Positions 1 to 16,365 of a stretch of 37,974 nt of DNA are shown here, piece by piece. How positions within the stretch are numbered: the stretch's first letter is position 1; each line of letters begins with the position of its first letter. Below the pieces are notes generated by a model. The model searched no databases. It saw only the letters and a program-made list of their open reading frames with translations, and was not told the origin of the DNA. Source of the stretch: a virus. Lineage: Duplodnaviria; Heunggongvirae; Uroviricota; Caudoviricetes. Both the position numbers and the translations under genes were made by a program. The stretch is from the IMG/VR virus record IMGVR_UViG_2778261505_000008, positions 1-37,974 of that record, one strand, 5' to 3'.

Positions 1-1074
1 TCATTTGTCGATTTCAATTTTGTCCCATTCCCGTCCACGGCTGTCCCTATACCGCGCCGCCATTGAGTCTGATTTATGCCCGAGAAGACGTTGAGCAAAC
101 TTATCGCCAATCTGGTTCCGGTATAGCCTCGCTGACAGGCTACGCAGTTCATGGAATGTTGGCGGGTTTCCATCAAATGAGAGTCCAGATGCATTTCTCG
201 CCTTTGTAAAATACTTTGATACTGTTTTCGGGGAAAGCGGATCGTGATGCTTTGATGCGATTATAGTTTCACTGCTGCTGGCCTCCCTGCATTTCTGTAG
301 TGTATCAGCCAATGAGATATTGAGCGCGTCAATCGTTAGCGTTAGCGGAATGGCGAGTTTAGCCCCTGTTTTACTCTGTTCAATGTGAAGATGGTTGTCG
401 TTTATGTCTGACCATTTCATTCTGCACAAATCGCCGACTCTCTGCCCTGTAACGACGGCCAAATCCATCGCCAGCCTTAGCCAGATAGGGAGAGGTTCGG
501 CTGCATGGTAAATCTCGACATACTCATTAGCTGTCAGCCTTGAGCGCCTTACTTCTGACTTTGCTGTACGGGTTGCTGTTACCGGATTCGTTGCCACATA
601 CCCCTCGGCTATTGCTTCACGAAAAACGTCAACAAGGGTTGACCTGATTAATTTTGCGGAAGCTGCTTTACCTTCTGCTACGTAGGTGTTTAGCATTGCT
701 GCCACTTCTTTCGTTGATATGTCAGTGAGCGGTTTGTCCGGCAATTTTCTTCGGATTGCCCTGATTTTGCTGGCGTAGTCGAGTAGAGTTTTCGGCCTGA
801 TCCCCCTTTCGGTGAGGATTGTTTCATATCGGTCAAGCCACACATGAAGAGTGATTGCGTCACCGCCTTTAATTCTGTCTATTAGTGATTTGCGTCCGCT
901 GTCTGAGAGTAACTCAATATTGGCCTGTATTGCTTCAGTAATTGCTATCCTCCTGTCTCTGCCTAATCCGAACTCTTTACCCGTCCTTGGGTCCCTGTAG
1001 CAGTAATATCCATTGTTTCTTATATAAAGGTTAGGGGGTAAATCCCGGCGCTCATGACTTCGCCTTCTTCCCAT
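1..1074 (-). CDS. int: Tyrosine integrase, phage lambda Int-like
   Basis: ORF track 1..1074 (-). Translation MGRRRSHERRDLPPNLYIRNNGYYCYRDPRTGKEFGLGRD... matches my recollection of lambda Int almost throughout. The stop codon is nt 1-3, so the att site lies outside the window. Confidence 0.95.
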   Translation of the reverse strand: MGRRRSHERRDLPPNLYIRNNGYYCYRDPRTGKEFGLGRDRRIAITEAIQANIELLSDSGRKSLIDRIKGGDAITLHVWLDRYETILTERGIRPKTLLDYASKIRAIRRKLPDKPLTDISTKEVAAMLNTYVAEGKAASAKLIRSTLVDVFREAIAEGYVATNPVTATRTAKSEVRRSRLTANEYVEIYHAAEPLPIWLRLAMDLAVVTGQRVGDLCRMKWSDINDNHLHIEQSKTGAKLAIPLTLTIDALNISLADTLQKCREASSSETIIASKHHDPLSPKTVSKYFTKARNASGLSFDGNPPTFHELRSLSARLYRNQIGDKFAQRLLGHKSDSMAARYRDSRGREWDKIEIDK

Positions 1075-1270
1075 TTCTGATCCTCTTCAAAAGGCTACCT
1101 GTTACTGGTCGATTTAAGTCAACCTTTACCGCTGATTCGTGGAACAGATACTCTCTTCCATCCTTAACCGGAGGAGGGAATATCCTGCACTCGCGTACCC
1201 ATCGACGAACTGTTTCAAGGCTTCTTGGGCGTCGCTGGCGAGCGTTCCACTCCTGAAGAGTCAAGTACAT
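1052..1270 (-). CDS. xis: Excisionase, lambda Xis-like (72 aa)
   Basis: ORF track 1052..1270 (-). MYLTLQEWNARQRRPRSLETVRRWVRECRIFPPPVKDGREYLFHESAVKVDLNRPVTGSLLKRIRNGKKAKS matches remembered lambda Xis. Overlaps the int start, as in lambda. Confidence 0.95.
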   Translation of the reverse strand: MYLTLQEWNARQRRPRSLETVRRWVRECRIFPPPVKDGREYLFHESAVKVDLNRPVTGSLLKRIRNGKKAKS

Positions 1271-3259: not shown

Positions 3260-3835
3260 TCACTCTCCCTTGATGCGAATGCCAGCGGCGCGCTCGGCTT
3301 CACTTTGTTCCCAAAACCACTTGTGAAGCTCCATGAGCTTTTCGTCAATCTGTGCATATTTGCGATTAAAGTAGGCCTGAGCATCTTTCTCAGATTCGTT
3401 CGGCAATTCGCCTGGGCAAAACAGTGTGTTATAAATCCATGCCAGTCCGCTCTTAGCGTCGCCAGTTGCCTGCCATTCGATAATGGCAGCCTGCATGACC
3501 AGAATGTTTTTCCCGATTAATAGGTCCAGTTCTTTATACCGGTTGCGGATGTATGCATTCTCGCTTTGTAATTCAGCGTTGCGCTTCTCTGCTGCTTCCA
3601 GCTTCTTGTAGAGAGCATCCCAACTTGTCGAGTTATCCATAACCAGCTTTGTAACCCGCTCTTCGCGTGATTTGTAATGCTTCAGTTCATCCAGTAGTGC
3701 CAGCACAATGTGTGGCGTTATCAAGGACTCAAATTCGGCAACAGTTTGCTCGCCTCGCTTGTAATTCTTAATCCCACCTAAATTTTTCGCGTTCTGTGCC
3801 GCCTCACGCAGTGCCTGGTAATTAATTTCGCTCAC
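3260..3835 (-). CDS. Ea22-like coiled-coil protein (191 aa)
   Basis: ORF track 3260..3835 (-). N-terminus [21 protein letters not shown] and heptad-rich body resemble the ead/Ea22-like family common in lambdoid b-regions. Remembered similarity only. Confidence 0.55.
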   Translation of the reverse strand: MSEINYQALREAAQNAKNLGGIKNYKRGEQTVAEFESLITPHIVLALLDELKHYKSREERVTKLVMDNSTSWDALYKKLEAAEKRNAELQSENAYIRNRYKELDLLIGKNILVMQAAIIEWQATGDAKSGLAWIYNTLFCPGELPNESEKDAQAYFNRKYAQIDEKLMELHKWFWEQSEAERAAGIRIKGE

Positions 3836-4314
3836 TGGTTTCCTCCTTTGCGAAGCTGGTCGGCGAACAAACGTACACCAGACGCTTCACTGCGTAGAAA
3901 CTTAGCGGCATAATCAAAACCACCTCGTTCTGCGTCGTCTGCTCCGTTGTCGAGGTTATCTGCGTACATCTCTACCCCCTGCGCCCGCACTTCAGCCAGG
4001 AAAGCGTCGGTGGCTGACATATTTCCTGTTGCCTTCATGGCCTTCAAAATAACCAGAACGCCATCTTGCCCAACCAACTCGGAGATAATCTCAGTGTTGT
4101 CGCCAACAACATCACAGAATGCCTGAACAGCTTTACGAGCAAGTGCATTCTCCGCCGCCAGCGCCGCGCACTTGGCCTCCGCTTCAGCAAATTTACGCAC
4201 CAGATATTCAGCGTTTGTTTCGTTAACCTTTAAATCTCGTGGGATGCATTTACCTTTCAGAAATCCATCCATCTCAATTAGTGACATTTGTTTCATTTCT
4301 TCCCACTCCGCCAC
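3832..4314 (-). CDS. Hypothetical protein (160 aa)
   Basis: ORF track 3832..4314 (-). ATGA-type overlap with the downstream gene. Start could instead be at M7 or M10. Confidence 0.5.
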
Positions 4315-4467
4315 ATCGCATTCAGATATTTGTTTTGATTTACTGAAGGAAAAGAATTTCTCTTAAGCAATTCCTCTCTCGATGGCATTGGCTTTACGCG
4401 TTGGCGAATAATCATTTCTGCCGGAAGAATGCCGGGATTGTATGCAAGTCCTCTCATGGTAAATTCC

Positions 4468-4764
4468 TCAGTCATTACTGATAGCGCCATAACGTGAGCG
4501 GTAATTACGCAGGCGCGGGTCGATATATTCAGGGAAGTGGGTATATGTGGCTTTGCGGAATGGTCGGATTGATGTCTGGTAAATTCGCTCGTGTTCTTCT
4601 TTCTCTGCAAGCCATATACAGTGGCGAAATTCCTTTTCCTCTTTCGTTTCCTGCGGTAGAGACATTATTCGATCGTAGTTTTTTCTGAATTTATCCAGCA
4701 CCTCCGATACGGAATTGCCGGAACAGCGGCGCGGGTCATCCGCACCATACAGAGGCGCTGGCAT
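4468..4764 (-). CDS. Hypothetical protein (98 aa)
   Basis: ORF track 4468..4764 (-). ATG at 4762-4764 preceded by AGGAGG with a 5-nt spacer. Lies immediately downstream of ssb. Confidence 0.6.
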
Positions 4765-4777
4765 GATTTCCTCCTGA

Positions 4778-5293
4778 TTAAATTGCGTGAATAGCGTGAC
4801 GAGGGAAGGGGAGAGTTACTGGCGCAAATGGTATATCGTCGTCAAACTCCATAGGTGGTTCGCTGTGATTTCCCTGCTGCTGAGGTTGCTGTCTTTGTTG
4901 CTGACCGTTATTTCGCTGAGGTGAAGACTGTTCATTGCCTCCTTGCTTGCCACCAAGCATTTGCATGGTTCCACCAACGCCCACGATGACTTCGGTAGTG
5001 AACCGATCCTGTCCGCTTTGATCCTGCCATTTTCTTGTCCGCAATTTGCCTTCAAGATAAACATCAGAGCCTTTTCGCAGATATTCGCTGGCAATTTCTG
5101 CCAGTTTCCCGCTCATTACCACGCGGTGCCACTCCGTCTGCTCCTTTTGCTCTCCAGTTTTCTTATCACGCCATTGTTCTGACGTAGCAACGGTAAGGTT
5201 TGCAAATGCCGTTCCTGATGGTGAATATCTGATTTCTGGATCATGCCCAAGGCGACCAATAATGATCACCTTATTTACGCCTCTGCTTGCCAT
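4778..5293 (-). CDS. ssb: Single-stranded DNA-binding protein with a 15-residue extension after the DDDIPF motif
   Basis: ORF track 4778..5293 (-). [16 protein letters not shown]...WHRVV...[12 protein letters not shown] is a canonical SSB OB fold, Gly/Gln-rich linker and acidic tip. The frame continues [15 protein letters not shown] before TAA, verified codon by codon on 4778-4849. Confidence 0.9.
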
Positions 5294-6001
5294 TTATGCC
5301 GCCTGTTTTAGTTCGTTAACTCTGATGTTCATTACCTGAACGCATTTAGCCTGCGCCTCCTCGTTGCCAGCCATTAATTGCCAGTCACGCTGATAACGCT
5401 CGATGAGTTTTTTCTTGTCAGTTTCTGTTGACGCATAATCGCTGAAGTCTTTCAGGATTTGTTCGCAGTCAACCGATGGAGATTTCTGGTTGGTATTTTC
5501 TGGTGATGGTTTGTTATCTGATGCTGGGATTGCCCATCCCGGAAGCGATGGAGGGAGCCAGTAAAATCCTGTTCCATCCTTCAGTTTTGCCCTGTGCCAC
5601 CCCTGCTTTTTATCGAGAGATGTTTGTGCGAAACCTTCCTCAAGGTTATACAGATACCGACCGATTCCCCACTGAACGGCAGCGCGCTTCATTGCACCGG
5701 AACGACCACCTTTGACGGCTTCTACCTGCGTGTTTTCAGCAGCATCCCATTTGGTTACCCATTCGGAATCAATCTTTATTGATATGCCGCATTCAACGCC
5801 GCCGTTGTTGGGAATATCGCGGTATTCATTGCGCCATCCTGCTTTGCCGCAAACATCGTCCAGGCGTTTCATGATTGCCCGGTTCGTGACATAAGCCAGC
5901 ACCATAGCCCACACCTTGCCATCGCGTGTTTTACCGCTTTGCTGTATTCGCCATTCGATATCTTCAGGGCTGAATGGCTCATCGAATTTATTCAAATCCA
6001 T
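5294..6001 (-). CDS. Single-strand annealing protein, Rad52/Sak-like
   Basis: ORF track 5294..6001 (-). Motifs RDGKVWAMVLAYVTNRAIMKRLDDVCGKAGWRNEY and GGRSGAMKRAAVQWGIGRYLY resemble Rad52-fold phage recombinases. Directly upstream of ssb, a typical recombination pair. Confidence 0.55.
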   Translation of the reverse strand: MDLNKFDEPFSPEDIEWRIQQSGKTRDGKVWAMVLAYVTNRAIMKRLDDVCGKAGWRNEYRDIPNNGGVECGISIKIDSEWVTKWDAAENTQVEAVKGGRSGAMKRAAVQWGIGRYLYNLEEGFAQTSLDKKQGWHRAKLKDGTGFYWLPPSLPGWAIPASDNKPSPENTNQKSPSVDCEQILKDFSDYASTETDKKKLIERYQRDWQLMAGNEEAQAKCVQVMNIRVNELKQAA

Positions 6002-6009
6002 AATTCACC

Positions 6010-6198
6010 TCAGAATGGTAATTCGGATGGGGAGGAAAGAAATTCGCGCTCACTCATGCGCTCTCTTTGTGCTTGCCATAAACAAAGTTGTTTCTTTGAT
6101 TTATCTCCCGCTTTACGCCAGTAACGAGCCTCAGCAATGTGATATTCTCTTTTTAATCGACTTAACTCTGGAGTTTTCGCCAGCTCTACCGTAATCAT
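6010..6198 (-). CDS. Hypothetical small basic protein (62 aa)
   Basis: ORF track 6010..6198 (-). Tightly packed between the Kil-like ORF and the annealing-protein gene. Confidence 0.4.
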   Translation of the reverse strand: MITVELAKTPELSRLKREYHIAEARYWRKAGDKSKKQLCLWQAQRERMSEREFLSSPSELPF

Positions 6199-6308
6199 TT
6201 AGACCTCCATTTTCTGTAGGCTTCGACGGCCTCACGAAACATCTTTTCATCGCCAATAAAAGTGGCGATAGTGAATTTAGTCTGAATAGCCATAAGTGTT
6301 TTATCCAT
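6195..6308 (-). CDS. kil: Kil-like small protein (37 aa)
   Basis: ATG at 6306-6308 with AGGAG 9 nt upstream. MDKTLMAIQTKFTIATFIGDEKMFREAVEAYRKWRSK resembles my recollection of the lambda Kil N-terminus. The ATG overlaps the cIII stop. The track's 79-aa ORF 6195..6434 is probably an artefact. Confidence 0.5.
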   Translation of the reverse strand: MDKTLMAIQTKFTIATFIGDEKMFREAVEAYRKWRSK

Positions 6309-6441
6309 TTTTTGGAACTCCTGGCTGATTAAGTACGTCGATGAGTCGTTTCCATCCGTCACGTAATTTACGGGTGATTCGTTCAAGTAAAGATTCGGAA
6401 GGGCAGCCAGCAACAGGCCACCCTGCAATGGCATATTGCAT
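6301..6441 (-). CDS. cIII: CIII (FtsH inhibitor), 46 aa
   Basis: Not in the ORF track. Hand translation of the reverse complement of 6301-6441 gives MQYAIAGWPVAGCPSESLLERITRKLRDGWKRLIDVLNQPGVPKNG, matching remembered lambda CIII. AAGGAG sits 6 nt upstream of the ATG. Confidence 0.7.
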   Translation of the reverse strand: MQYAIAGWPVAGCPSESLLERITRKLRDGWKRLIDVLNQPGVPKNG

Positions 6442-6513
6442 GGTGTGCTCCTTATTTATACATAACGAAAAACGCCTCGAGTGAAGCGTTATTGGTATGC
6501 GGTAACGCCGCGC

Positions 6514-7050: not shown

Positions 7051-7948
<898 letters not shown>

Positions 7949-8250: not shown

Positions 8251-9603
<1,353 letters not shown>

Positions 9604-9611
9604 GACATTCC

Positions 9612-9643
9612 CGCTCTTACACATCCAAGCCCTGAAAAAGGGC
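9612..9643 (+). promoter_or_regulatory. nutR (boxA and boxB)
   Basis: boxA CGCTCTTA at 9612-9619. boxB GCCCTGAAAAAGGGC at 9629-9643, identical to lambda nutR boxB. Confidence 0.85.
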
Positions 9644-9667
9644 ATCAAATTAAACCACACCTATGGT

Positions 9668-9687
9668 GTATGCATTTATTTGCATAC
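9668..9687 (+). terminator. tR1-like hairpin
   Basis: gtatgca-tttatt-tgcatac: perfect 7-bp stem, 6-nt loop, between nutR and cII. No strong T-run, so possibly Rho-dependent as in lambda. Confidence 0.4.
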
Positions 9688-9722
9688 ATTCAATCAATTG
9701 TTATTTAAGGAAATACTTACAT

Positions 9723-10016
9723 ATGGTTCGTGCAAACAAACGCAACGAGGCTCTAAGAATCGAGAGTGCGTTGCTTAACAAAATCGCAATGCTTGGAACT
9801 GAGAAGACAGCGGAAGCTGTGGGCGTTGATAAGTCGCAGATCAGCAGGTGGAAGAGGGACTGGATTCCAAAGTTCTCAATGCTGCTTGCTGTTCTTGAAT
9901 GGGGTGTCGTTGACGACGACATGGCTCGATTGGCACGACAAGTTGCTTCGATTCTCACCAATAAAAAACGCCCGGCGGCAACCGAGCGTTCTGAACAAAT
10001 CCAGATGGAATTCTGA
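9723..10016 (+). CDS. cII: CII transcriptional activator (97 aa)
   Basis: ATG at 9723. [97 protein letters not shown] matches remembered lambda CII. The track ORF starts upstream at 9663. Confidence 0.9.
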
Positions 10017-13065: not shown

Positions 13066-13097
13066 AGGCCTGCTGGTAATCGCAGGCCTTTTTATTT
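13066..13097 (+). terminator. Rho-independent terminator after the primase-helicase gene
   Basis: aggcctgc-tggtaatc-gcaggcct: 8-bp perfect stem, then ttttatttg. Confidence 0.7.
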
Positions 13098-13113
13098 GGG
13101 GGAGAGGGAAGTC

Positions 13114-13701
13114 ATGAAAAAACTAACCTTTGAAATTCGATCTCCAGCACATCAGCAAAACGCTATTCACGCAGTACAGCAAATCCTTCCAGACCCAACC
13201 AAACCAATCAATCAAATAACTCAGCAGAGACTTAAAGAAGTCCTTCTCTACGATGAGTTAACAGGGAAATTCACATGGAAAGTAAAGAAATGCCAGAGAA
13301 TGAATGCTGGGGATATCGCAGGGCATAAGAGTAGCGAAGGCTACTGGGTAATAAAAGTCGATGGAAAACTTTATAAGGCACACAGGCTGGCGTGGCTCTA
13401 TATGAATGGCAGTCTACCAAAAAGTGATATCGACCACATAAATCTCGTTAGGGATGACAATCGTATAGCAAATCTTAGATTGGCAACTCGATCTCAAAAC
13501 ATCCAAAACGTAAACAAAAAGGCAAATAACAAATCAGGATATAAAGGCGTTTCATGGGATAAGAAATCAAGAAAATGGAGGGCGCAAATCGTAATCAACA
13601 AGAGGAAAGTTAATCTTGGGTTTTACGATGACCCAAAGGAAGCTCATAAAGTATATGCAAATAAAGCGGATGAATGTTTCGGCGAATTTGCGAGGTATTA
13701 A
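13114..13701 (+). CDS. HNH endonuclease with a NinB-like N-terminal segment fused in frame
   Basis: ATG at 13114 with GGAGAGGGAAG upstream. HNH/AP2-type core ...[35 protein letters not shown]...GYKGVSWDKKSRKWRAQI.... The first 32 aa MKKLTFEIRSPAHQQNAIHAVQQILPDPTKPI match my recollection of the lambda NinB N-terminus and are absent from the paralog at 36510-37010. Confidence 0.85.
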   Translation: MKKLTFEIRSPAHQQNAIHAVQQILPDPTKPINQITQQRLKEVLLYDELTGKFTWKVKKCQRMNAGDIAGHKSSEGYWVIKVDGKLYKAHRLAWLYMNGSLPKSDIDHINLVRDDNRIANLRLATRSQNIQNVNKKANNKSGYKGVSWDKKSRKWRAQIVINKRKVNLGFYDDPKEAHKVYANKADECFGEFARY

Positions 13702-13702
13702 A

Positions 13703-14131
13703 ATGAAATGTGTCAAATATCACCTTACTAATGAATCTATAAGATATAACGCCATTCAGTATCTTAGGACATGCGATTTAGACATCATTGTCGAGTTTAA
13801 GCAGCGCAACCGCAGCTTAGACCAGAATCGAAAGCTTTGGGCCTGCTTAGGTGACGTCTCTCGTCAGGTTGAATGGCATGGTCGCTGGCTGGATGCAGAA
13901 AGCTGGAAGTGTGTGTTTACCGCAGCATTAAAGCAGCAGGATGTTGTTCCTAACCTTGCCGGGAATGGCTTTGTAGTAATAGGCCAGTCAACCAGCAGGA
14001 TGCGTGTAAACGAATTTGCGGAGCTATTAGAGCTTATACAGGCATTCGGTACAGAGCGTGGCGTTAAGTGGTCAGACGAAGCGAGACTGGCTCTGGAGTG
14101 GAAAGCGAGATGGGGAGATCGGGCTGCATGA
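13703..14131 (+). CDS. ninB: NinB (Orf-family recombination mediator) with a divergent N-terminus
   Basis: ATG at 13703 with GAGGT upstream, 1 nt after the HNH stop. From ...KQRNRSLDQNRKLWACLGDVSRQVEWHGRWLDAESWKCVFTAALKQQDVVPNLAGNGFVVIGQSTSRM... to the end it matches remembered lambda NinB. The first 28 aa are a diverged version of the NinB N-terminus. Confidence 0.85.
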   Translation: MKCVKYHLTNESIRYNAIQYLRTCDLDIIVEFKQRNRSLDQNRKLWACLGDVSRQVEWHGRWLDAESWKCVFTAALKQQDVVPNLAGNGFVVIGQSTSRMRVNEFAELLELIQAFGTERGVKWSDEARLALEWKARWGDRAA

Positions 14132-15001: not shown

Positions 15002-15716
15002 GTTAATAAATGGCAATGTCATCAAAATGACAAGCATTGAAATCGCTGAGTTGGTGGGTAAGCGTCATGACAATGTGAAACGTACCATCGAAACGCTGGA
15101 TAAAAATGGTGTTATCCGGCTTCCTCAAATTGAGGATTGTGGAAGAATCAATGGGTTAGGCTTAAATCAAAGTTTTTGTGTGTATGTATTCGAAGGCGAA
15201 CAAGGAAAGCGAGACAGTATTGTCGTTGTAGCCCAGTTGTCGCCGGAATTCACCGCTCGTCTTGTTGACCGTTGGCGAGAGCTTGAAGAATCTGCGGTTA
15301 ATATCCCAAAAACGCTACCAGAAGCGTTGCGCCTTGCTGCTGACCTTGCTGAGCAGAAAATGCAACTGGAAAACCAGCTCGCAATTGCCGCACCTAAAGT
15401 TGAGTTTGCCGATCGCGTTGGCGAGGCCAGCGGAATTTTGATTGGAAACTTTGCAAAGGTTGTTGGAATTGGTCCAAACAAACTGTTTGCGTGGATGCGC
15501 GATCACAAAATCCTTATTGCTTCAGGTTCCCGGCGCAATGTGCCAATGCAGGAATATATGGATCGCGGCTATTTCACAGTGAAAGAAACAGCGGTCAACA
15601 CAAATCACGGGATACAGATATCGTTCACCACAAAAATCACCGGGCGTGGTCAACAGTGGCTGACCAGAAAGCTTCTCGATAACGGAATGCTGAAAGTAAC
15701 AGGGGAGGCTGCTTAA
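14994..15716 (+). CDS. Rha-family regulator with KilA-C-type antirepressor C-terminal domain
   Basis: ORF track 14994..15716 (+). N-terminus MTSIEIAELVGKRHDNVKRTIETL is Rha-like; the C-terminal half resembles antirepressor KilA-C domains. Confidence 0.75.
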   Translation: MNELINGNVIKMTSIEIAELVGKRHDNVKRTIETLDKNGVIRLPQIEDCGRINGLGLNQSFCVYVFEGEQGKRDSIVVVAQLSPEFTARLVDRWRELEESAVNIPKTLPEALRLAADLAEQKMQLENQLAIAAPKVEFADRVGEASGILIGNFAKVVGIGPNKLFAWMRDHKILIASGSRRNVPMQEYMDRGYFTVKETAVNTNHGIQISFTTKITGRGQQWLTRKLLDNGMLKVTGEAA

Positions 15717-16006
15717 TGGCTAATCTACGCAAAGAAGCACGCGGCAGAGAATGCCAGGTACGTATTTACGGCGTATGCAATGGTAATCCTGAAACTACAG
15801 TTCTGGCACATTACCGGATGGCTGGAATTTGCGGAACGGGAATGAAGCCTGACGACATGATCGGCGCATGGGCTTGTAGCGCGTGTCACGATGAAATCGA
15901 CCGACGCACCCATAATATCGACAACAAAGACGCCAGACTTTACCACCTCGAAGGCGTAATCAGGACGCAGGCGGTATTGCTGAAGGAGGGGAAGGTTAAG
16001 TCATGA
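15716..16006 (+). CDS. DUF1364 (YbcO-like) protein
   Basis: ORF track 15716..16006 (+). MANLRKEARGRECQVRIYGVCNGNPETTVLAHYR...CSACHDEIDRRTH resembles E. coli DLP12 YbcO. Confidence 0.75.
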   Translation: MANLRKEARGRECQVRIYGVCNGNPETTVLAHYRMAGICGTGMKPDDMIGAWACSACHDEIDRRTHNIDNKDARLYHLEGVIRTQAVLLKEGKVKS

Positions 16007-16365
16007 ATGAATATCGGTTTGTGCTTCCATACCCGCCGTCGGTGAACACCTACTGGCGAAGACGGGGAAGCCAATACTACATCAGCGATAAAGGCCAGAA
16101 ATACCGAAAAGATGTACAGCAAATAATCCGCCAACTCAAGTTAGATATTTTCACCAAATCACGACTCCGCATCAAAGTCATCGCAGACGTTCCAGACTCC
16201 CGCCGCCGCGACCTCGATAACATCCTGAAAGGTTTACTCGACTCCCTTATCCACTCCGGATTTGCGGAAGACGACGAGCAATTCGATGACATTCGCGTAA
16301 TTCGTGGCGTGAAAGTACCAGGCGGAAGGCTTGGAATAAAAATCACCGAACTGGAGAACGTATGA
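16003..16365 (+). CDS. rusA: Holliday junction resolvase RusA
   Basis: ORF track 16003..16365 (+). ...DVPDSRRRDLDNILKGLLDSL... and ...VPGGRLGIKITELENV align with E. coli RusA motifs (RRRDLDN). Confidence 0.9.
   Translation: MNEYRFVLPYPPSVNTYWRRRGSQYYISDKGQKYRKDVQQIIRQLKLDIFTKSRLRIKVIADVPDSRRRDLDNILKGLLDSLIHSGFAEDDEQFDDIRVIRGVKVPGGRLGIKITELENV

Follow-up and report, generated by a model that had tools for sequence, protein, structure and literature searches.

The stretch of DNA analyzed here, which we call the window, spans 37,974 nt and holds a complete P22-like lambdoid prophage, from int through the tail genes. The prophage is a podovirus of the CUS-3/P22-like type, and its late genes are of the CUS-3/P22 type. 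Three landmarks place its early region:

1 to 1074: integrase, at the left end of the window
1052 to 1270: xis, at the left end of the window
8652 to 10016: the cI/cro/cII immunity region

To the right of the immunity region lie genes for an O-like initiator and a primase-helicase, the nin region, Q, and then the late genes. The leftward early operon reads N, DUF2528, cIII, kil, orf62, annealase, ssb, and so on as far as xis and int, with the annealase and ssb at the map position where lambda has gam-bet-exo. This gene order, from N to int, bears out the proposal of a first-pass annotation that an annealase and a single-strand binding protein replace lambda Red in a lambdoid early-left operon. 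Within it we recognize a recombination (Rec) module in the order cIII, kil, orf62, annealase, ssb, abc2, DUF2737, the features of which are as follows:

6471 to 6490, minus strand: hairpin resembling a terminator, upstream of cIII where HK620 and Sf6 have tL2 (consensus scan)
6301 to 6441, minus strand: cIII, the FtsH-inhibitory lysogeny factor, at the upstream edge of the region (PF02061, E = 3e-30; phrog_550)
6195 to 6308, minus strand: kil, a host cell-division inhibitor of 37 aa (PF06301, E = 6e-21)
6010 to 6198, minus strand: orf62, 62 aa, of the HkaM/ST64T-orf66 family, at the position of P22 arf (phrog_1723)
5294 to 6001, minus strand: predicted Rad52-like single-strand annealing protein, 235 aa (PF04098; AlphaFold2 fold; identity to phage proteins)
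5297 to 5533, minus strand: C-terminal region of the annealase (aa 157 to 235), a disordered linker and, after it, the three-helix domain also present in P22 Erf
4778 to 5293, minus strand: phage SSB of the bacterial SSB type ("SSB-1"), 171 aa (PF00436, E = 5e-38; TIGR00621)
4781 to 4825, minus strand: 15-codon extension after the DDDIPF tip of SSB (sequence comparison)
4468 to 4764, minus strand: Abc2, predicted anti-RecBCD (RecC-binding) protein, 98 aa (PF11043, 204 bits, E = 2.4e-61; phrog_656)
4293 to 4457, minus strand: small DUF2737-family protein, 54 aa, a conserved partner of abc2 (phrog_1117, E = 4e-38)

The module is compact, its genes overlapping or lying no more than 13 nt apart: kil overlaps both cIII and orf62, the annealase stop codon abuts the ATG of ssb, just as the first-pass annotation had placed ssb directly after the annealase, and abc2 begins 13 nt past the ssb stop codon. 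An annealase with ssb directly after it is far beyond chance. Terminators are annotated at the equivalent site upstream of cIII in HK620, HK75, and epsilon34, and the hairpin is presumably read through under N antitermination.

Accessory recombination genes lie outside the module, in the nin region:

13703 to 14131, plus strand: NinB/Orf recombination mediator (PF05772, E = 4e-46)
15716 to 16006: YbcO, a putative nuclease preceding RusA (PF07102, E = 3e-44)
16003 to 16365, plus strand: RusA Holliday-junction resolvase (PF05866, E = 1e-16)

The window contains no Chi site against 1.2 expected, a deficit that is not statistically meaningful, and Sf6 and P22 are likewise without Chi. Among the early-left ORFs without assigned function, PADLOC returned a single match, "DpdH" on an Ead/Ea22-like protein, which is probably spurious.

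A Rad52-type annealing core with an Erf-type C-terminal domain

The annealase ORF is intact, begins with ATG, and occupies exactly positions 5294 to 6001 of the minus strand. It matched the Pfam family Rad52_Rad22 (PF04098) at 91.9 bits (E = 5e-26; gathering cutoff, 20.3 bits), with residues 4 to 136 covering positions 7 to 153 of the 153-position profile, and the scan listed nothing else in Pfam for it up to E = 10. That statement extends to the ERF core (PF04404), against which P22 Erf itself scores E = 4.6e-46; BLASTP aligned P22 Erf with the C-terminal 79 residues only, and the annealase does not belong to the ERF family as that core defines it. Homologues number ~5,600, and PF04098 was present in all 120 of those listed. 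The protein is 99.6% identical to both Sf6 gp28 and HK75 gp32. NCBIfam gave no model for it, nor for Abc2 or orf62.

Because a sequence search against PDB chains returned just a nonsignificant WW-domain resemblance (Prp40, E = 0.1), a fold comparison was needed to reveal the likeness of the annealase to RAD52 and Mgm101. An AlphaFold2 model with 28 homologues as input reached a mean pLDDT of 84, and its best 15 Foldseek matches in the PDB were all yeast Mgm101 or human RAD52 (probability, 0.96 to 1.00; E = 8e-5 to 4e-3; TM-scores modest, at 0.3 to 0.5). A predicted Rad52 N-terminal fold is thereby joined to an above-threshold profile match. The family PF04098 is common to the window protein, human RAD52, yeast Mgm101, and Sak of the lactococcal phage ul36, and the predicted N-terminal fold matches those of RAD52 and Mgm101, but sequence identity to annealases of the Rad52 superfamily is only 12 to 16%, and the window protein, unlike those comparators, carries an added Erf-type C-terminal helical domain. 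On the strength of the profile and the predicted fold, we consider the placement of this ORF among the Rad52/Rad22-family annealing proteins to be real. The first-pass annotation had called it Rad52/Sak-like and staked that call on its profile assignment, which proved to be Rad52_Rad22 and not an unrelated family.

The C-terminal region is a different matter. Residues 157 to 235 are 63% identical to residues 134 to 205 of P22 Erf (71% across the helical part), with predicted helices at residues 179 to 192, 196 to 209, and 214 to 234, whereas the annealing cores of the two proteins differ, PF04404 in P22 Erf and PF04098 here. The annealase is a chimera, in which a C-terminal domain of the P22 Erf type follows a Rad52-type core, and the "Erf-like" labels that PHROGs and GenBank attach to it reflect this shared domain or a grouping at the superfamily level. 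HK97 Erf ends in a more distant copy of the domain (37% identity).

Searched alone, the C-terminal domain returned fragments only from a set of 5.8 billion proteins; it must be considered narrowly distributed, because a set of 1.8 billion representatives gave only 15 matches, with no new host architectures. Its AlphaFold2 model (pLDDT, 80) found only generic three-helix bundles as structural matches (best E = 1.4). Homology to the partner-binding domain of Red-beta was considered and found unsupported, the model having matched neither the Red-beta C-terminal domain nor lambda Orf.

An SSB with an extended tail

The SSB scored 182.5 bits against TIGR00621 (cutoff, 53.95 bits), which places an OB-fold SSB domain in the protein, and is 96 to 97% identical to Sf6 gp27. 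Partner binding by Escherichia coli SSB depends on an acidic DDDIPF tip at the extreme C terminus, with a free Phe carboxylate. The window SSB departs from this bacterial arrangement: its DDDIPF motif occupies residues 151 to 156 and is followed by 15 extra residues, so that the tip is not C-terminal. These residues may change the partner interactions of the protein.

The 45 nt of the extension are 100% identical in HK75, in epsilon34, and at the 3' terminus of gp26, the HNH gene of Sf6, even though the SSB cores of HK75 and epsilon34 are only ~72% identical to that of the window. In Sf6, SSB terminates with DIPF itself, and it is the HNH protein that ends in the 15-aa tail. Such a distribution would be explained either by an HNH gene that homed into the ssb junction or by a scar left when the HNH gene was lost.

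Abc2 and the absence of a phage exonuclease

The first-pass annotation saw neither an exonuclease partner nor a RecBCD inhibitor in this operon, and the two halves of that reading fared differently. The exonuclease half holds: Pfam, PHROGs, and NCBIfam turned up nothing of the lambda Exo/YqaJ, RecE, or Gam type in the early-left ORFs scanned. The Pfam scan covered ORFs between 1793 and 6882; the ORFs at 1376 to 1720 and 4293 to 4457 were covered by PHROGs and, for the former, NCBIfam as well. The locus is accordingly not a module of the lambda Red or RecET kind, which has a 5'-3' exonuclease and, for lambda Red, Gam in addition.

The missing-inhibitor half fails because Abc2 sits among the flanking ORFs. 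The match of ORF 4468-4764 to PF11043 lies far above the family cutoff of 25 bits, and a full-length alignment with P22 Abc2 gives 92% identity and shows conservation of Pro68, the residue through which Abc2 engages host PpiB (PMC9836394). Judged by the protein in PDB 8B1T, to which it is 92% identical, the window Abc2 would bind RecC and abolish the response to Chi (PMC9836394), and this ORF is predicted to supply the anti-RecBCD function of the module. What had been described as small unknown ORFs on each side of the annealase and ssb therefore holds upstream, where orf62 belongs to the orphan HkaM family, and not downstream, where the ORF is Abc2. By the same token, the flanking ORFs contain neither an exonuclease nor a Gam homologue, but they do contain a RecBCD inhibitor that is the functional analogue, not the homologue, of Gam. 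The DUF2737 protein beside it is the equivalent of P22 orf56 (75% identity), HK620 HkaI (100% identity), and HK97 gp38.

Phages that encode Abc2 are without an exonuclease, which co-opted RecBCD would provide (PMC9836394); a phage exonuclease would not be needed, because Abc2 is proposed to turn host RecBCD into a resecting nuclease.

Relatives of the module

The cassette is already known. It is annotated in RefSeq, under the labels "Rad52/Rad22 family DNA repair protein," "ssb," "phage anti-RecBCD protein," and "DUF2737 family protein"; it is present in Sf6, HK75, ES18, epsilon34, and ST64T; and a 2025 survey tabulated modules of its type. The 2.15 kb from 4300 to 6450 have 97 to 98% nucleotide identity to HZ41, CurroJimenez, Sf6, IME10, and N7 and 82 to 88% to the Salmonella phages S137, epsilon34, g341c, and ES18, and annotated gene orders confirm the same cassette. 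At least 80% of the stretch is found in 187 of 5,426 complete E. coli genomes.

The 2025 survey sorted the Rec modules of 325 lambdoid phages by four functions (PMC12315714). Its HK75 class, positive for anti-RecBCD, SSB, and annealase and negative for nuclease, accounts for 27 of the 325, and its ES18 class has the functions of the HK75 class plus a nuclease (PMC12315714). Rec proteins of the Sf6/ES18 type had at that time been the subject of no experimental study (PMC12315714). The window falls into the HK75 class: Abc2, SSB, and annealase genes are contiguous (gaps of 13 nt at most), and no nuclease gene lies between ssb and abc2. Many close relatives differ solely in having an extra gene at that point, for an HNH endonuclease in Sf6 and ES18 and for a DnaQ-like 3'-5' exonuclease in epsilon34.

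HK75 itself has the same order of annealase, ssb, abc2, and DUF2737, with 91% nucleotide identity over 85% of the 4300-6450 stretch; its annealase is 99.6% identical to that of the window, its Abc2 and DUF2737 proteins are each 96% identical, and its SSB tail extension is identical. It differs in its SSB core (only ~71% identical, the window SSB being of the Sf6 type) and in the small ORF upstream of the annealase, which resembles HK022 gp42 in HK75 and HkaM in the window. The Sf6 genes 29/30-28-27-26-25 are also very similar (~98% nucleotide identity; annealase, 99.6%; SSB, 96%; Abc2, 97%), but Sf6 carries the HNH endonuclease gene gp26, absent from the window, directly after the IPF codons of SSB, and its small ORFs upstream of the annealase differ.

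Two further phages offer position-for-position equivalents. P22 (c3-kil-arf-erf-abc1-abc2-orf56) is the experimentally studied prototype and, like the window phage, is without a phage exonuclease; it has abc1 where the window has ssb, and its acidic Arf is unrelated to orf62. HK620 (cIII-kil-hkaM-sak4-ssb-abc2-hkaI) shares with the window the logic of an annealase, a cognate SSB, and Abc2, and its HkaM, Abc2, and HkaI are 95%, 97%, and 100% identical to their window counterparts. HK620, however, has the RecA-core ATPase Sak4 as its annealase and an SSB of the DUF669 type that ends in NDYPPF; neither is homologous to its window counterpart. Lambda Red (exo, bet, gam), at the same map position, likewise pairs RecA-independent single-strand annealing recombination with neutralization of RecBCD. 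Lambda has its own 5'-3' exonuclease and a Gam that blocks RecBCD fully, whereas the window phage, without an exonuclease of its own, would modify RecBCD through Abc2.

Proposed recruitment of RecBCD as the exonuclease partner

We judge it very likely that the locus is a standard lambdoid/P22-like Rec module of the HK75 type in which Abc2 makes host RecBCD the exonuclease partner of the annealase. The analysis itself establishes which genes are present, their order, the predicted annealase fold, and how nearly identical the genes are to those of known phages; the biochemical activities and protein-protein contacts in this scenario are drawn by analogy from P22 and HK620. The module would be transcribed from pL under N antitermination. 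Abc2 would bind the RecC subunit of host RecBCD on its Chi-recognition domains, abolishing the response to Chi, keeping the helicase, and up-regulating degradation of the 5' strand. Phage DNA ends would then no longer be destroyed by RecBCD but would be given 3' single-stranded tails instead, and the host enzyme would in effect become the resecting exonuclease partner of the phage annealase. Phage SSB would coat the single strand, and the oligomeric Rad52-fold annealase would pair it with a complementary single strand, either at a replication fork or at another resected end. The outcome would be RecA-independent recombination, repair, and concatemer formation, and NinB, RusA, and YbcO of the nin region may assist in the later steps. 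In the sister module of HK620, the cognate SSB does stimulate the annealase (PMC5928155).

The nuclease genes that many close relatives carry between ssb and abc2 weigh against this scenario, as do the 15 extra residues after the SSB tip, and in the wider family a nuclease may contribute.

Alternative explanations

The most serious alternative places the action of the annealase and SSB chiefly at replication forks or in replication restart, with no resection of ends, and has Abc2 just shield rolling-circle tails from RecBCD. Oligonucleotide recombineering with the HK620 module, in which abc2 had no effect and ssb was strongly stimulatory (PMC5928155), is what such a role at forks would predict, and the Sak and Sak4 recombinases are reported to be required for Staphylococcus aureus phage replication (PMC5499656). 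The hijack model is, moreover, partly hypothetical, since the step in which Abc2-RecBCD would load the annealase "remains to be tested" (PMC9836394). Yet Abc2-RecBCD is far from inert, as its helicase activity is retained and its 5'-nuclease is up-regulated (PMC9836394), and modules with Abc2 are characteristically without an exonuclease (PMC9836394; PMC12315714, Table 1). We regard an exclusive emphasis on forks as rather unlikely, though worth keeping in mind; annealing at forks and hijacking of RecBCD are not mutually exclusive.

Another alternative, from the first-pass annotation, is that the module lacks an inhibitor devoted to RecBCD and that one of the small ORFs beside it, for example 6010-6198, might have a novel Gam-like anti-RecBCD function. 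The ORF in question, orf62, lends itself to such speculation: it has no match in Pfam, NCBIfam, or PADLOC, its PHROG label, "recombinase," is uninformative, and its family always heads Rec modules, adjoining kil both in modules with Rad52-like annealases (epsilon34, L/ST64T) and in Sak4 modules (HK620, Stx2 phages). Nevertheless, with a bona fide Abc2 two genes downstream, nothing is missing from the module, and Abc2 accompanies the orf62 family at every locus inspected. Orf62 is 95% identical to HK620 HkaM and ~65% identical to the versions in Salmonella phages, including epsilon34 gp37. It produced no BLASTP alignment with P22 Arf at E ≤ 100 and, being basic (pI 9.6), is unlike the acidic DNA-mimic inhibitors Gam and gp5.9 and unlike the strongly acidic Arf (pI 4.05), to whose family neither its sequence nor its charge assigns it. 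In HK620, sak4 and ssb alone gave the oligonucleotide recombineering level of the whole module, hkaM included (PMC5928155). Nothing ties orf62 to RecBCD, and we consider an anti-RecBCD role for it highly improbable.

Equally improbable is a decaying, functionless cassette in a cryptic prophage, as might be read into the absence from the window of the HNH or DnaQ nuclease gene of many relatives and into the noncanonical C-terminal extension of SSB: all ORFs of the module are intact and 96 to 100% identical to those of the plaque-forming phages Sf6, HK75, and HK620, the viable phage HK75 has both the nuclease-less arrangement and the SSB extension, and the P22-like genome in the window is complete, running from int through the tail genes.

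A possible adaptor, and what the module offers

Within the favored scenario of RecBCD recruitment by Abc2, the Erf-type C-terminal domain may be an adaptor, because Abc2 is encoded two genes downstream in all seven inspected phages that have the domain (P22, L/ST64T, epsilon34, Sf6, HK75, the window phage, and HK97 with its distant copy). The domain would then be a portable module that links its annealing core, of whatever type, to Abc2-modified RecBCD or to SSB, and the SSB extension would perhaps follow the same partner-switching logic. We offer this idea tentatively and think it doubtful. Abc2 also pairs with Sak4, which is without the domain; distant Rad52-like relatives carry diverged versions of the domain without Abc2; and the domain, narrowly distributed as it is, has no informative structural neighbor. 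A strict link between domain and Abc2 is itself weakened by the distant relatives in Erwinia, Hafnia, and Superficieibacter, beside whose annealases no Abc2 is encoded.

The survey of lambdoid Rec modules named the "shuffling of partner interaction domains" as outside its scope (PMC12315714). Some practical value remains in the Rad52-type annealase and SSB as a candidate recombineering pair. An Erf-type domain on a different annealing core is, moreover, a clean natural domain swap for studying what couples phage annealases to Abc2-RecBCD or SSB, and if the adaptor reading were true, the C-terminal domain would be the missing physical link of the Abc2 hijack model.

Single-strand-binding protein tail and annealase domains

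The DDDIPF tip is internal in the single-strand-binding protein (SSB) of the window, and 15 more residues lie C-terminal to it, encoded at the following position.

4781-4825, minus strand: 15-residue SSB extension at the end of ssb, past the DDDIPF tip

In phages HK75 and epsilon34 the 45-nt tail segment is 100% identical in nucleotide sequence to that of the window, whereas the SSB cores are only about 72% identical. The same 45 nt, again 100% identical, form the 3′ end of the HNH gene gp26 in Sf6, the SSB of which stops at DIPF. The segment marks either a junction of HNH homing or the scar of a deletion. The extension past DDDIPF may alter the binding of SSB partners.

Region 5297-5533 (minus strand) of the Rad52-like annealase is a domain that has been exchanged naturally between different annealase cores. 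A second stretch of this protein carries a weak WW-like pattern (GW...G.FYW...P..W..P).

5521-5616, minus strand: WW-domain-like stretch, annealase residues about 129 to 160

Three short strands are predicted here, and W148, P151, P154, W156, and P159 are invariant in the family. The match to the Prp40 WW domain is not significant (E = 0.1), and neither Pfam nor Foldseek supports the resemblance.

Accessory genes in the window

13096-14131, plus strand: ninB with an HNH_3+AP2 homing-endonuclease ORF interruption

This ORF splits ninB: the canonical NinB N terminus (MKKLTFEIRSPAHQQNAIHAVQQILPDPTKPI) opens ORF 13096-13701, and from 13703 a complete NinB restarts with a divergent, re-coded N terminus.

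Three further genes stand at these positions.

7129-7632, plus strand: 167-aa Cys-rich ORF, phrog_1244
8251-8655, minus strand: 134-aa protein with a signal-peptide-like N terminus, phrog_2651
3260-3835, minus strand: Ead/Ea22-like protein

The Cys-rich ORF lies inside the pL operon yet on the opposite strand, at the sieB/hkaP position between N and a DUF2528 gene; no Pfam-like, NCBIfam, or PADLOC family could be assigned to it, and it is a possible superinfection-exclusion gene. The 134-aa ORF, at the rex position, shares 4 nt with the stop codon end of cI, has no match in PADLOC, and is probably a lysogen-expressed moron. The Ead/Ea22-like protein matches the PADLOC "DpdH" model (E = 1.4e-35), but that defense-system model has probably swept in a prophage protein, so a genuine Dpd component is unlikely here.

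Chi sites and the abc2 position

Chi (GCTGGTGG) is absent from both strands of the window (1-37974), which is not significant, since about 1.2 sites are expected by chance; the absence agrees with that in other Abc2-encoding phages.

Among distant relatives of the module, an unannotated protein family takes the place of abc2.

L010 (Hafnia prophage locus), 5158-5670: family member
L012 (Superficieibacter prophage locus), 4716-5000: family member

Both proteins share the motifs ILxxL...NxITxFHR...EPYY...PWG...IGGxVYR. The family sits downstream of a Rad52-like annealase, with SSB present or absent, and its members are candidates for an alternative partner or for an anti-RecBCD protein.
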